This document shows positions 17,889 to 59,272 of a stretch of DNA of 64,000 bases, in pieces. The notes below the pieces were generated by a model, which saw only the letters and a program-made list of their open reading frames with translations, had not been told where the DNA came from and did no database searches. Made by a program: the position numbers and the translations under genes. The DNA comes from Eledone cirrhosa (lineage: Eukaryota). The stretch spans positions 45,570,001 through 45,634,000 of the forward strand of contig OZ024740.1 in assembly GCA_964016885.1 (NCBI GenBank), written 5' to 3'. Positions within the stretch are counted from its first letter, which is position 1, and each line of letters opens with the position of its first letter.

Positions 17889-18037
17889 CTTGTGGAAGCA
17901 AGGGTTTTGTATTTAGTTTTCTTTCCTGGTGGAATTGGTAGTTCAAATTTACAGGTGAGTGTTTCAAGATCCCAGCCAAATATTGAATCATCTTTGAAAC
18001 ATGTAATAATAATATTACTGAGAGGTAGGAAAAACAC
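17889..18037 (-). CDS. TBC1D31: TBC1D31 coding exon 5 (VFFLPLSNIIITCFKDDSIFGWDLETL...KTLAST)
   Basis: cag|GTG...AG|gtaag, 149 nt. Matches the recalled VFFLPLSNTILSCFKDNSIFAW. Confidence 0.92.
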
Positions 18038-18690
18038 CTGAAACAGGTAATAATGATATTACTGAGAGGTAAGAACACATGAGACAGGTAATAATAATAT
18101 TACTGAGAGGTAGGAAAAACACCTGAAACAGGTAATAATGATATTACTGAGAGGTAAGAACACATGAGACAGGTAATAATAATATTACTGAGAGGTAGGA
18201 AAAACACCTGAAACAGGTAATAATGGAAGTATTAATGAGAAGTAAGAAGAACACCTGAGACAGGTGTTACTGAGAGAGACAGGTAATAATGATATTACTG
18301 AGAAGTAAGAAGAACACTTGAGACAGGTAATTATGATATTACTGAGAGGTAAGAAGAACACGAGACAGGTAATAATTGTTTCTATTTTAGGCACAAGGCC
18401 AGCAGGTAATAATGGAGGTATTAATGAGAGGTAGGATGAACACCGGAGACAAGTAATAATGGAGATATTAATGAGGTAGATAGAACACCTGAGACAGGTA
18501 ATAATAGAGGTATTAATGAGAGGTAAGAATACCTGAAGCAGGTAATAATAGAGGTATTAATGAGAGGTAAGAAGAATACCTGAAGCAGGTAATAATGGAG
18601 GTATTAATGAGAGGTAAGAAGAATACCTGAAGCAGGTAATAATGGAGGTATTAATGAGAAGTAAGTAGAACACCTGAAATATTAATCAGT
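18000..18690 (-). repeat. 41-45-bp minisatellite made of the TBC1D31 exon 5 start plus acceptor AG
   Basis: Minus-strand unit cagGTGTTTTTCCTACCTCTCAGTAATATYATTATTACCTGTTT. 85-bp dimers lie near the exon and more diverged copies lie distally. Confidence 0.93.
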
Positions 18691-18833
18691 GTTAAATTGA
18701 AAGTGACTGAATAAAACATATATGGGAATGAAGTACAATTTAGAATATGATTTGCATACAAATTAATATATAAATATAATTAATAGTTTCATCTATAAAC
18801 ATGTATAATAATAATAATAATAATAATAATAAT

Positions 18834-19024
18834 AATTGTTTCTACTTTTGGCACAAGGCCAGCAATTATCCCAGTGTATTACTGGTACTTTATTTTATCG
18901 ACCCCGTAAGGATGAAAGGCAAAGTTAACCTCGGCGGGATTTGAACTCAGACCATAAAGGGCCGTAACTCTTTGCTGCAAAGCATGGCGTCCGACCCTCT
19001 ACCGATACTGCCAATCCACCGCCC
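18834..19024 (-). mobile_element. tRNA-derived SINE family B. Other copies at about 15855-16065, 20910-21465 (three), 27492-27640, 34289-34468, 43220-43420, 45685-45830, 50030-50437, 53547-53730, 63281-63437
   Basis: Minus strand GGGCGGTGGATTGGCAGTATCGG (A box)...GAGTTCAAATCC (B box)...tgtgccaaaagtagaaacaattattatt tail. Many dispersed copies in this window. Confidence 0.85.
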
Positions 19025-19169
19025 TTATAATAATGATAAGAATAATAATGAAATTATTGTGTACAGTGCTCATGTGCACTACAACTAATTATTTTCATGT
19101 GTAGATACACATTTATTTCCACACACACACACATAATTATGTAATGATTTTCATATTTAAATACAGATC

Positions 19170-19413
19170 GTGTAGGTGTCACGACAAAAAAACACACAGT
19201 CCACACTGTAATGTGGCTGTGTAGGTAACACGGTAAACAGTTCCCAGTCCACACTGTAAATGTGGTTGGCGTTAGGAAGGGCATCCAGCCGTAGAAAACC
19301 TGCCAGATAGTCCTATATGAGCGAGACACGGTCACCCGACCAACCTTGCCTCAAGTGGGAGAACTCCCGTCTAACCCATGCTAGCGTGGAAGATAGACGT
19401 TAAACGATGATGA
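19170..19413 (+). mobile_element. RTE LINE 3'-end fragment
   Basis: Similar to 6740-6970, with cccgtctaacccatgctagcgtggaa and a (GAT)n tail. Confidence 0.75.
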
Positions 19414-19984
19414 TACAGTAACAGTGACAGCAACTGCCATGGCATCAATGCCAACTACAGGTATTACCAGTAGTAACTACGACAGCACCAGCAAGAACAT
19501 CACTGGGAAGGGCTCTGATATTATATTTGTGGGTAGGTGATAGTTATTGTCATTGACACTGATGGACGTTGTCATTACCATTGCTGTCATTATTCTCAAG
19601 ATTATTGTTAATGTTATTATTGTCATCTTTATATACATAGGTATAAATGATGATGTGTTCAAACGCATAGATGCTATAAGATAGCTTATAAAATAGAGAG
19701 AAGAGCCTTAAAAGATGGAAAAAGAAGTTGCCATCTTCTTTTAAGGGTTTTCACCCTATTACAACTATTTCATCTGACGAATGGGCTGGACATTTCTATA
19801 AGGATCGTCAAGTTTCTTGAAACCTTTGCTAATAGAATAATTATATTGTGTTGTTTATTATGTAATTAAATAGCTCTGTACTATACATGGAGTACTCTTC
19901 TTTCTTTTACCTTTTCTACGGAAATACTTAACATTTAACATACACACACCACACATATATATATATATATATGTGTGTGTGTGT

Positions 19985-55044: not shown

Positions 55045-55120
55045 TTATTAAGATAACAGATTAAAGTTTAAGCAAAGATTCGCTGCTTTCACCCTTAACG
55101 GGATCTTCTGAAACTGAGTT
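55045..55120 (-). mobile_element. Solo terminal fragment of the 38290-41440 Penelope family with the same variant hammerhead (55065-55115)
   Basis: Reverse complement of 41374-41440 with few substitutions, again abutting (TA)n. Confidence 0.8.
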
Positions 55121-55190
55121 ATATATTTGATATATATTTATCCTTATCGAGCCCTCTTTGGATTTTAGTCTTCAAATTTATTATTATTAC

Positions 55191-58170
55191 TACACACACA
55201 CACACACACACACACACACACACACACACACACACATATATATATATATATATATAAACATGTATACATATATATAAATATAAACATGTATACATATATA
55301 TATATATATAAACATATATATATATATATATAAACATGTATACATATATATAAATATAAACATGTATACATATATATATATATATATATATATATATATA
55401 TATATATATATATATATATATATAACATATATATATATAAACATATATATATATATATATATAAACATATATATATATATATAAACATATATATATATAT
55501 ATAAACATATATATATATATATAAACATATATACATATATATAAACACATATATATATATATAAACATATATATATATATATATAAACATATATATATAT
55601 AAACATATATACATATATATAAACATATATACATATATATAAACATATATACATATATACATATATATATATATATCAACATATATATATATATATAAAC
55701 ATATATACATATATATAAACATATATACATATATATATATATACATATATATATCAACATATATACATATATATAAACATATATACATATATATATCAAC
55801 ATATATACATATATATAAACATATATACATATATATATAAACATATATACATATATATATATATAAACATATATATATATAAACATATATACATATATAT
55901 AAACATATATACATATATATATATATATAAACATATATACATATATATAAACATATATACACATACATATATATATATACATATATACATAAATATACAT
56001 ATATATACATATATATATACATAAATATACATATATATACATATATATATGCATAAATATACCTATATATACATATATATATACATAAATATACATATAT
56101 ATACATAAATATACATATATATATACATAAATATACATATATATATATATACATATATACATATATACATACATATATATATATATACATACATATATAC
56201 ATATATATATACATATATATATATACATACATATATACATATATATATATATATATATATATATATATACACATATATATATATACATATATATATACAT
56301 ATAAACATATATACATATATATATACATATATATATATATACATACATATATACATATATATATACATATATACATATACATATATATATATACATACAT
56401 ATATATACATACATATATATATACATATATATATACATATATACATATACATATATATATATACATACATATATATACATACATATATATATATATATAT
56501 ATATATATATATATACATACATACATATATATATATATATATATATACATATACATACATATATATATATATATATATATATATATATATACATACATAC
56601 ATATATATATATATATATATATATATACATATACATACATATATATATATATACATACATATATATATATATATATATATACATATATATATATATACAT
56701 ATATATATACATATATATACATATATATATACATATATATATACATATATATATACATATATATATATACATATATATACATATATATACATACATATAT
56801 ATACATATATATACATATTTATATACATATATATATACATATATATATATACATATATATACATATATATATATATACATATTTATATACATATATATAT
56901 ATACATATATATACATATATATATATACATATATATATACATATATATACATATATATACATATATATATATACATATATATACATATATATACATATAT
57001 ATATATATACATATATATACATATATATACATATATATATATACATATATATACATATATATATATACATATATATACATATATATATATATACATATAT
57101 ATATATATACATATATACATATATATATATACATATATATATATATACATATATACATATATATATATATACATATATACATATATATACATATATATAT
57201 ATATATATACATATATATATATACATATATATATACATATATATATACATATATATATACATATATATATACTTATATATATACATATATATATACATAT
57301 ATATATACATATATATATACATATATATATATATATACATATATATATATATACATATATATATACATATATATACATATATATACATATATATATACAT
57401 ATATATATACATATATATATATATATACATATATATATATACATATATATATATATACATATATATATATATATACATATATATATACATATATACATAT
57501 ACATATATATATACATATATATATATATATATATATATATATACATATATATATATATACATATATATATATATATATATATACATATATATACATATAT
57601 ATATATACATATATATATATATATATATATACATATATATATATATATATATATACATATATATACATATATATATATACATATATATATATATATACAT
57701 ATATATATATATACATACATATATATAGATACATATATATACATATATATACATATATATATACATATATATACATATATATATACATATATATATATAT
57801 ATATATATATATACATATATATATATATATATATACATATATATATATACATATATATATATATATATATATACATATATATATATATATATATATACAT
57901 ATATATATATACATATATATATATTTATACATATATATATATACATATATATATATATATATATATATATATACATATATATATATATTTATACATATAC
58001 ATATATATATATATATACATATGCATATATGTATATATATATATATACATATAGATACATACATACATATACATACATACATATACATACATATACATAC
58101 ATACATACATACATACATACATACATACATACATACATACATACATATATATATATATATAAATATATGT
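55191..58170. repeat. ~3-kb compound (CA)n/(TA)n/(TACA)n microsatellite
   Basis: Seen directly. Source of the Y/I/M/V/C-rich ORFs. Confidence 0.97.
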
Positions 58171-58668
58171 ATATAAGTATATTTTGCGTTAAGTTGCGTC
58201 CCTTTACGTTTAAGGGTTACTAAGCCATTCGTTAAATATATATTTATAGATTGATAAAATAAGCATCGGATTGAAATAATCAATATAGTAGGGTCGATAT
58301 TTTTCGACTAAAATCCCTTGATACTGGTGCCTCAGTATAGCTGCAATTTTACGACTGGAACCAGTAAAATAAATAAATAAATAAATAAATAAATAAATAA
58401 ATAAATAGATAAATAGAGTGGGAGTTAAACTATTTCAATGAAGGACAACAACAACAATAATAATAGTATCATCAACAATAGAATAAAATAGTTATGAAAC
58501 GTATCTATACCAATAATAATAATAATAACAATAATATAAGTTCTGTATCTGTCGACTGTAAGTTCTGTATGTGTCGACTGTCGACGAAAGAGAGCTGGAG
58601 CCAAAAAACAGACATATTTCTCACTCCGGGTAGTTGCTCTGTCGATTGTTGTATTCTAGTCTCTTCAG

Positions 58669-58810
58669 TTATTTGAAGACCTGGAGAATGGCGTTGCCAA
58701 CGATATCGCAAAGTTCTTGACAGTAGAATGTTGCTACTAATTGTTTTTCACCAAGCTTGCGTCCCACGAATATAATCTCTTCCATGAAGTTACCATGTGG
58801 AGGGATATCA
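58669..58810 (-). CDS. Transglutaminase, last coding exon (DIPPHGNFMEEIIFVGRKLGEKQLVATFYCQELCDIVGNAILQVFK*)
   Basis: cag|T acceptor, phase 2. The G.KQLVA.F...L..I.G pattern is typical of the second C-terminal beta-barrel of transglutaminases. Confidence 0.85.
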
Positions 58811-59272
58811 CTGAAATGTGTAAAAAAAAACAAACAAATGAAAATATCACTGAAATTTGTAAAAAAAAACAAACAAATGAAAATACTGAAATATGTAAAA
58901 AAAAACAAATGAAAATTTCTCTGAAATGTGTAAAATATGGGTGAAATTTCACTGAAATATGTAAAACATGGATGAAATTTCACTGAAATGTGTAAAACAT
59001 GGGTGAAATTTCACTGAAATGTGTAGAACATGGATGAAATTTCACTGAAATGTGTAAACATGGGTGAAATTTCACTGAAATGTGTAAAACATGGGTGAAA
59101 TTTCACTGAAATGTGTAAAACATGGGTGAAATTTCACTGAAATATGTAGAACATGGATGAAATTTCACTGAAATGTGTAAACATGGGTGAAATTTCACTG
59201 AAATGTGTAAAACATGGGTGAAATTTCACTGAAATGTGTAAAACATGGGTGAAATTTCACTGAAATGTGTGA
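58811..59272 (-). repeat. 31-bp (39-bp next to the exon) minisatellite made of the transglutaminase last-exon acceptor
   Basis: Minus-strand unit ttttacacatttcag|TGAAATTTCACCCATG; the real junction is ttttacacatttcag|TGATATCCCTCCACATG. Confidence 0.92.

Follow-up and report, generated by a model that had tools for sequence, protein, structure and literature searches.

The occurrence of tandem arrays at splice junctions raises the question of whether exon edges favor the birth of such arrays or only their survival. The question is posed by a 64,000-nt window of octopod DNA (the whole stretch analyzed, from Eledone cirrhosa contig OZ024740.1), in which a first-pass annotation had reported 13 coding exons, three of them with one boundary expanded into an array. 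We mapped the exons by homology, with TBC1D31 coding exon 1 located via tblastn and its boundaries then checked; all 13 lie on the minus strand, nine belonging to TBC1D31 and four to a transglutaminase gene (Table 1). Both genes are intact, as TBC1D31 exons 1-9 join into 409 codons without a stop, encoding a conceptual protein that is colinear with Octopus sinensis TBC1D31 (374/409 identical), while the four transglutaminase exons join into 217 codons whose sole stop is the terminal one. Overlap of the arrays with these exons bore out the reported count: arrays cover three of the 24 true junctions, namely the TBC1D31 exon 3 donor, the TBC1D31 exon 5 acceptor and the last transglutaminase acceptor.

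Table 1. Coding exons, arrays and related features, numbered from the first position of the window.
Feature	Positions	Strand	Remarks
TBC1D31 exon 9	7510..7592	-	gene runs on past window start
TBC1D31 exon 8	8606..8710	-	
27-bp array	9777..14178	.	~61 nt into intron 7 from donor; without junction sequence
TBC1D31 exon 7	14240..14440	-	
TBC1D31 exon 6	16146..16305	-	
TBC1D31 exon 5	17889..18037	-	exon-derived sequence precedes working acceptor; spliced contig
Acceptor mirage, TBC1D31 exon 5	18038..18673	-	636 nt, 13 segments: 11 of 41-47 bp, two longer
Dispersed-repeat piece	18371-18404		34 nt, inserted within exon 5 array
Displaced intron 4 acceptor	18674..18706	-	unique AT-rich intron end closing in TTTCAG
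TBC1D31 exon 4	21963..22141	-	
Donor mirage, TBC1D31 exon 3	24487..25478	-	30 units of 31 bp and one of 35 bp
TBC1D31 exon 3	25460..25575	-	last 19 nt are exonic part of donor-array unit
TBC1D31 exon 2	28066..28224	-	
48-bp array	28270..28677	.	46 nt from exon 2 acceptor; derived from dispersed repeat
TBC1D31 coding exon 1	37259..37335	-	tblastn and boundary check
Transglutaminase last coding exon	58669..58810	-	
Acceptor mirage, transglutaminase last exon	58811..59275	-	14 decoy TTCAG acceptors, 30-39-bp units
37-bp intronic array	59275..59469	.	separate; adjoins transglutaminase acceptor mirage
Transglutaminase exon G3	59630..59766	-	
Transglutaminase exon G2	60146..60318	-	
Transglutaminase exon G1	63595..63793	-	fourth from last

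The three arrays share a common anatomy. Each is arranged head to tail with a terminal unit that spans the real exon-intron boundary, and the units are locus-specific, with no matches outside their own arrays within the window. The splice dinucleotide and exon sequence that had been ascribed to the unit are kept in 31/31 donor copies, at 8/13 exon 5 unit junctions and in 14/14 transglutaminase units, and thus in many but not all copies. By this anatomy the arrays are mirage minisatellites, matching the published definition, and the proposal that exon-intron junctions were amplified here, adding intron length and decoy splice sites, was upheld. The exon-derived share of the unit ranges from ~5 nt to the entire unit across the three arrays, which fits random breakpoints. 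A local copy search found a nearby copy with at least 18 of 24 matches only at these three of the 24 junctions; the remaining 21 reach 12-17 matches, and no two-copy precursors were seen among them.

The arrays differ in what their decoys would do to the reading frame. The exon 3 unit is composed of 19 exon nt and ~12 nt of the intron start, and it supplies 31 decoy AG/GT donors, every one of which leads to a stop at codon 126; the position of the stop is independent of copy number, whichever decoy is used, and the exon-proximal donor is the only frame-preserving site. Each exon 5 segment copies the exon's initial 44 nt with 34-41 matches, and the segments differ among themselves and from the exon. 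This unit is almost wholly exonic, the intron sharing only the terminal TTTCAG, and the upstream context of the working acceptor is exon-derived. CAG/GT is retained at eight of the 13 unit junctions and the AG is lost at five, whereas three unit junctions read GTATTC, near the true exon 4 donor GTATGT. All 17 upstream AGs at exon 5 lead to a stop, and the proximal acceptor alone keeps the frame. AG loss varies with distance from the exon, affecting 5/8 of the nearest unit junctions and 0/5 of the farthest; a reading of this gradient as selection was set aside because some of the losses trace back to a single event that was then copied, and because internal CTCTCAG sites trend oppositely. The transglutaminase units carry only about 5-6 exon nt, and the tracts are richer in T at the real acceptor and the two decoys closest to the exon body (14-15 T of 20) than at the other decoys (8-10). 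The first-pass claim that only the exon-proximal site preserves the frame stands for exons 3 and 5 and falls here, as four of 15 upstream AGs (at +39, +75, +108 and +141 nt) read open to the natural stop and would insert 13-47 residues. As this array precedes the terminal exon, nonsense-mediated decay (NMD) should not act.

To the distal side of the exon 5 array lies the displaced intron 4 acceptor, which is probably ancestral. The working acceptor appears to have arisen anew from copies of the exon, and the original site that was displaced may still be conserved. Relative to a related species (organism B), the 58 nt at 18649-18706, which correspond to -33..+25 of the distal acceptor, contain no substitution among the 40/541 differences listed, whereas the flanking 69 nt contain at least 13 (5 gap letters are unplaced). 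The probability of such a stretch is P 0.002-0.03, or P 0.025-0.03 when adjacent substitutions are merged, values that are post hoc because the boundaries were chosen after looking.

Splicing of exon 5 was assessed by comparing contigs from sequencing runs with positions 16100-22300, the region of exons 4-6. Contig 9 of run X4 (depth 3.7, 0 differences) runs from exon 5 directly into exon 6 with the intron missing, for which reason the run is taken as RNA, and it departs from the genomic sequence at 18035, the position of the proximal acceptor once the shared GT is taken into account. This single low-depth contig uses the exon-proximal acceptor of exon 5, presumably joined there to exon 4. Run X4 has depth 0 at the listed places within 18624-18733, around the distal acceptor, which was not counted as evidence because contigs show presence and not absence; the contig evidence covers one of the three arrays, and contigs drop rare isoforms. 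In organism B, a 790-nt contig runs through exon 5 and a shorter array into the distal intron, and the comparison of orthologous introns that the first-pass annotation had proposed thereby places an array at the same position with fewer units (~234 nt and ~5 units, versus 636 nt and ~14 here). No differences separate the assembly from DNA contigs of run X1 over 18196-18396 and 18630-18794, although X1 may derive from the same sample as the assembly. The array at exon 5 is real and common to two species. At 85% likeness, exons 5 and 6 were not covered by run X6 (organism C), which was uninformative, and two metagenome loci (40% and 60% identity) were set aside as distant and not octopod.

Two further arrays had been counted with the pattern because of their closeness to exon edges, and both were rejected as junction copies. 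The array described as a 24-bp repeat within ~55 nt of exon 7 proved to have a 27-bp unit and to begin farther from the donor, and it lacks junction sequence. The 48-bp array does lie near exon 2 as stated, but it is not junction-derived: the dispersed repeat behind it has further copies at 166-200 and 63491-63525, and its unit recurs at 32713-32855, separated from the array by a 404-bp repeat and a LINE-like insertion.

To judge how far the three junction arrays exceed chance, we used a uniform placement model in which progressively more transposon DNA was masked, giving three expectations per set; the test is post hoc and concerns a window selected for the pattern. Tandem repeats found by TRF occupy 15,900 bp, and nine of the 12 strong arrays lie away from junctions. 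In the strict set of 12 arrays, three junction arrays were observed where 0.19, 0.28 and 0.37 were expected (P 0.00076, 0.0023 and 0.0051), so that uniform placement under-predicts them 8-16-fold, and in the loose set (40, 37 and 37 arrays) the expectations were 0.58, 0.80 and 1.06 (P 0.019, 0.044 and 0.087). At random non-exonic positions, three or more local copies occurred in 0.3% and 1.5% of cases (600 draws each), versus 3/24 junctions. The impression that the arrays are too frequent for random placement therefore stands within the window for the strict set and weakens under the loosest definition; this is a local excess, and genome-wide enrichment does not follow from one post hoc window.

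The reading that we favor, and consider probable, is that a genome rich in repeats produced the arrays incidentally, through the usual birth of tandem repeats. A local duplication of 30-45 bp, produced by slippage or microhomology-assisted repair, would have happened to span a splice junction; at exon 5, the TTTCA common to the acceptor and exon nt 39-43 is a candidate microhomology. The duplication would have been tolerated since it left one exon complete, with a usable site adjoining it, and placed the additional copies within the intron, after which the array would have grown and homogenized as any minisatellite does. The spliceosome would pick the site nearest the exon body, as the exon 5 contig suggests and as protein homology and the human F7 precedent imply for exon 3 and transglutaminase, and rare use of decoys in TBC1D31 would yield premature stops that are presumably cleared by NMD. 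The local excess at junctions could then reflect selection of the window, purging of arrays in exons and better survival beside a conserved exon. The arrays add intron length with no demonstrated regulatory role, and look like a tolerated by-product of repeat instability. Four points count against this reading: the junction excess, the single low-depth contig, the stretch without listed substitutions at the displaced acceptor, which is not predicted of a dead decoy, and the use of pseudo-donors in human IFI6 and CBS, which indicates that decoys are not always silent.

The junction excess would also be explained if duplications arose preferentially at exon edges, with the arrays still functionless, an alternative that we regard as possible though unlikely. 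Homologue exchange might start in conserved exons and slip at a polymorphic intron, or splicing-coupled R-loops or nucleosome edges might concentrate breaks there. Both the strict-set counts and the control positions point this way, the introns are kilobases long so that crowding in short introns does not explain the excess, and several amphioxus loci appear in passages of PMC3087553. However, the loose definition with full masking leaves a 2.8-fold excess in a window picked for its pattern, and the seeded junctions have no distinguishing sequence feature, and the other 21 have no two-copy precursors. Hairpin stability at the seeded junctions is not special (ranks 14, 7 and 19 of 24), on which grounds hairpin or palindrome seeding was rejected, and microhomology of 3-7 nt occurs at every junction (median 5.5 nt over 24), which is compatible with seeding and does not discriminate.

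A second alternative, which we judge improbable, concerns exon 5, where the exon 4 donor may join the displaced acceptor or a CAG/GT unit junction and the array then leave as an intron of its own, either by recursive splicing or as a Rogers-type intron birth from an exonic AG/GT duplication, with a zero-length exon. The exon-derived unit, the retained CAG/GT junctions, the three GTATTC sequences and the distal acceptor without listed substitutions agree with such a two-step route, and a duplication around AG/GT can make an intron in one step, as stated in passages of PMC3265369. Against this, the donors that would be regenerated are weak, both routes would yield the same mature mRNA so that the spliced contig cannot tell them apart, and the merged-substitution probability is modest for boundaries picked after looking. 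Intron gain of the Rogers type was not found, as there is no new intron position: the nine TBC1D31 exons are colinear with the O. sinensis protein and every TBC1D31 array sits inside one of the introns between them. It is similarly improbable that all of the bolder elements hold together, that is, that exon edges are true birth hot spots for minisatellites in octopods and other repeat-rich marine invertebrates, that the exon 5 acceptor was rebuilt from the first 44 bases of its exon, and that the displaced acceptor 636 nt upstream is recursive and removes the array as a nascent intron.

Selection of the arrays as regulatory devices, in which copy number would set the share of transcripts that decoys send to NMD or turn into variant proteins, is likewise improbable. 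The premature stops reached from the 31 exon 3 decoys and 17 exon 5 AGs, the four in-frame transglutaminase AGs, the persistence of the exon 5 array in two species and the use of some human decoys (in parts of PMC1557585) could be read in its favor. However, premature stops are the default outcome of non-coding insertions, the exon 5 contig uses the proximal site, the AG is gone from 5/13 unit junctions at exon 5, and human F7 splices normally and is described in the same parts of PMC1557585 as using only its first donor, with alleles of 5-9 copies. The first-pass suggestion of copy-number-tunable NMD or alternative splicing is unsupported, given the proximal acceptor in the contig, the same codon 126 stop and the terminal position of the transglutaminase exon. 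An assembly artefact has a very low probability. In its favor, the 27-bp array contains a perfect 1,160-bp stretch that recurs at a lag of 1,466, so that some array lengths in this assembly may be unreliable. For exon 5 this explanation is ruled out by the differing units, the matching X1 contigs and the second-species contig.

These observations extend mirage repeats to cephalopods, and the literature searches found no cephalopod or mollusc mirage report. The arrays let splice-site choice be examined in natural settings where 14-31 near-identical sites compete, on the acceptor side as well, and junction arrays can mislead gene annotation and read mapping. The phenomenon is not lineage-specific, being also named in amphioxus and listed for five human genes. 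The original paper on the Adh3 mirage is said to be that of Canestro et al. in 2002. Amphioxus mirages are described at Adh3, the globins BflGb6 and BflGb9, troponin C and PGBD5, in genes that splice normally (passages of PMC3087553 and PMC3902484), with unit lengths of 10-160 bp and a generating mechanism called unclear (passages of PMC3087553). As far as those passages go, the arrays described here are alike in that tandem copies cross exon-intron boundaries, at donors as well as acceptors, with several arrays in a genome region, unit lengths in the reported range and AG or GT in many but not all units. Copy number in amphioxus varies and a normal mRNA is made, to which the ~5 versus ~14 exon 5 units of the two species and the single exon 5 contig may correspond. 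The present arrays are unlike those of amphioxus in their cephalopod host and in an exon 5 unit that is essentially all exon, with an exon-derived acceptor context. The Rogers-type model (PMC3265369, discussed in PMC3087553, both in part) resembles the exon 5 array in that exonic sequence is duplicated with AG/GT at the unit junction and turned intronic, but here the duplication begins at an existing acceptor, so that intron 4 grows and acquires a different 3' end. The human cases, in the relevant parts of PMC1557585, are donor-side repeats in F7 (IVS7, 37-bp), IFI6 (6-16), CBS intron 13, LMNB2 and PDGF, with two proximal pseudo-donors used besides the authentic one in IFI6 and CBS; a literature search on CBS 844ins68 found no passage about splice-site choice. 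Their first unit likewise spans the boundary, 4-25 repeats of the donor lie in the intron (31 decoys at exon 3), and the most upstream donor is preferred, a likeness to the predicted behavior of exon 3. In contrast to these single, donor-side loci, the window has two acceptor-side arrays among its three; at an acceptor, a 5'-to-3' scan would settle on the wrong copy, and exon definition would have to be invoked.

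The window is octopod DNA. Protein searches gave TBC1D31 of Octopus sinensis as the best match of exon 7 and matched another exon to Octopus vulgaris transglutaminase. Mapping the proteins back onto the window (by tblastn for TBC1D31) yielded nine exons of TBC1D31 and four of transglutaminase. All lie on the minus strand and have GT-AG borders; their number agrees with the 13 coding exons of the first-pass annotation and gives 24 splice junctions. The TBC1D31 exons join into 409 codons without a stop or a gap relative to the O. sinensis protein (374 identical), and the transglutaminase exons into 217 codons whose sole stop is the terminal one. 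As first proposed, three exon boundaries have been expanded into tandem arrays, each overlapping a real junction; within the window, the units of all three have no copies elsewhere.

Tandem arrays that overlap splice junctions
Array	Position	Strand	Composition
TBC1D31 exon 3 donor	24487-25478	minus	30 units of 31 bp plus a single 35-bp unit; 96% matches
TBC1D31 exon 5 acceptor	18038-18673	minus	13 segments in 636 nt
Transglutaminase last acceptor	58811-59275	minus	14 decoy TTCAG acceptors, 30-39-bp units

Two near-edge arrays fall outside this phenomenon. The array after exon 7 does start close to the exon (~61 nt into the intron), but its period is 27 bp rather than the 24 bp originally reported, and it is ruled out as a junction copy as it lacks junction sequence; the 48-bp array near exon 2 is ruled out as a derivative of a dispersed repeat. 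Within the 27-bp array (9777-14178), an exact 1,160-bp run recurs at a lag of 1,466, either because the block was recently duplicated or because the assembly duplicated it, and at 28270-32855 one 48-bp array is apparently split by a 404-bp repeat (x2.5) and a LINE-like reverse-transcriptase element. Other repeats include an LTR retrotransposon in TBC1D31 intron 9 (222-5900; putatively Ty3/Gypsy, by eye), whose insertion is recent because its terminal-repeat stretches (263-562 and 5441-5740, 300 nt) are 100% identical; 90 nt from the beginning of the LTR recur in inverted orientation at 5246-5335. Intron 7 holds an inverted repeat (9044-9177; 65-nt arms 97% complementary, 4-nt loop), and intergenic DNA a near-perfect palindrome of ~330 bp (52554-52887; arms 98% complementary, 13-nt loop). 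By eye, a putative Penelope-like reverse-transcriptase stretch (38300-41800) may include a hammerhead motif around 41710-41750, and a related inverted piece lies at about 55060-55130.

The exon 3 unit consists of the last 19 exon bases plus ~12 bases starting with the intron’s GTAATAAT, and each of the 31 decoy donors runs into a stop at codon 126. The exon 5 unit is copied from the opening 44 bases of the exon (34-41 matches), and in tblastn the first residues of this exon appear repeated across the array. Exon bases 39-44 read TTTCAA, whereas the array copies terminate in TTTCAG, so that exon-derived sequence precedes the acceptor adjoining the exon body. CAG/GT is kept at 8 of 13 unit junctions, and each of the 17 AGs upstream of exon 5 produces a premature stop. 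At the far end of the array, unique intron sequence closes at 18674 in an AT-rich acceptor of ordinary type, probably the original exon 5 acceptor. One unit is interrupted by 34 nt of an abundant dispersed repeat (18371-18404; exact match at 63276-63309), both ends of which share short matches with the unit, resembling a templated repair insertion. The transglutaminase units hold only ~5-6 exon bases, and the frame is open to the natural stop from 4 of the 15 AGs upstream; the claim that the frame-preserving site is the copy nearest the exon body thus holds exclusively for exons 3 and 5, two of the three arrays. Nonsense-mediated decay (NMD), for which a role was suggested, is not expected at transglutaminase, as this array precedes the terminal exon. 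In the distal units (58913-59275), TGAAAT stands in place of exon-derived TGATAT, perfecting a short palindrome over the acceptor.

Four of ten sequencing runs were aligned to 16100-22300. Of these, run X6 yielded no coverage of exons 5 and 6 at 85% similarity. In run X4, a run of unrecorded type, contig 9 (623 nt, depth 3.7, 0 differences), read beyond its first 107 letters, aligns to 18035-17888 and then directly to 16304-16146, and is therefore spliced. This single contig, which may miss minor isoforms, departs from the genome at the proximal acceptor of exon 5; its 2-nt offset there fits the GT in common with the exon 4 donor. Exon definition presumably underlies this choice of acceptor, and NMD would clear TBC1D31 decoy transcripts. 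The arrays are probably best explained by a short duplication that would have spanned a splice junction, been tolerated since splicing kept to the site closest to the exon body, and then expanded as a functionless minisatellite.

A possible, though clearly less probable, explanation is that arrays are born preferentially at junctions. To model chance, every array was represented by a single founder unit, whose probability of spanning a junction with a margin of at least 3 nt was calculated, leaving out wholly exonic placements, with stepwise masking of large transposons (by-eye limits) and then dispersed repeats. With strong arrays (n = 12; period 10-100, copy number ≥3, score ≥100; hand-merged), three junction arrays were observed versus 0.19, 0.28 and 0.37 expected as masking increased (P(≥3) = 0.00076, 0.0023 and 0.0051). 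Loosely defined arrays (n = 40, 37 and 37) gave 0.58, 0.80 and 1.06 expected (P = 0.019, 0.044 and 0.087). Nearby copies with at least 18 matches occur for 3 of 24 junction 24-mers and for none of the other 21; at least three such copies occur at 0.3% and 1.5% of random non-exonic positions (two pools of 600). Junction arrays are thus in local excess, whose size depends on how arrays are defined, and the suggestion that they are too frequent for random placement stands for strong arrays within a window selected for showing the pattern, but weakens for loose ones. Against biased birth, the seeded junctions carry no distinguishing feature among those compared over the 24 junctions: their hairpin stabilities rank 14, 7 and 19, and microhomology of 3-7 nt is present at all 24. 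Survival next to exons may instead have helped to cause the excess.

Run X5, from another species, supplied one 790-nt contig covering 17858-18055 and 18591-18777; these two stretches are separated by 133 letters in X5 versus 535 here, indicating an exon 5 array of ~234 nt and ~5 units versus ~14. The array is common to two species and has changed in length, so copy number changes over time. Among the 40 of 541 difference rows listed, X5 has 13 substitutions across 18621-18747, none of them in 18649-18706, which reaches from -33 to +25 relative to the displaced acceptor at 18674. This would hint, at the sequence level, against a functionless by-product and for recursive use of the displaced acceptor, which we consider very unlikely. 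The test is post hoc, with five gap letters unplaced, and its P of 0.002-0.003 becomes 0.025-0.03 when adjacent changes are merged. Selected regulation through decoy sites, consistent with the uniform premature stops in TBC1D31, is about equally improbable, as the X4 contig uses the proximal acceptor. Exact matches to parts of the exon 5 array also occur in X1 DNA contigs, which may derive from the assembly’s own sample; the X5 contig rules out an assembly artefact for this array, and overall that explanation is scarcely tenable. Expansion of a tolerated duplication and these four alternatives are not fully exclusive.

Among the literature matches listed, no cephalopod or mollusc case of mirage minisatellites (arrays copied from an exon-intron boundary, splice signal included) was found, nor, by title or abstract start among 20 listed of 755, a genome-wide junction test. 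Amphioxus mirages are reported in two globins and Adh3, where they occur on both exon boundaries; their units measure 10-160 bp, their length varies, splicing is normal and the mechanism is described as unclear, and they are proposed as a route of intron gain (PMC3087553); troponin C and PGBD5 are further loci (PMC3902484). In the 37-bp VNTR of F7 the first donor alone is used, and of the IFI6, CBS, LMNB2 and PDGF arrays listed with it, IFI6 and CBS use two decoys (PMC1557585). Compared with these amphioxus and human arrays, the splice-junction arrays described here represent the same known phenomenon.
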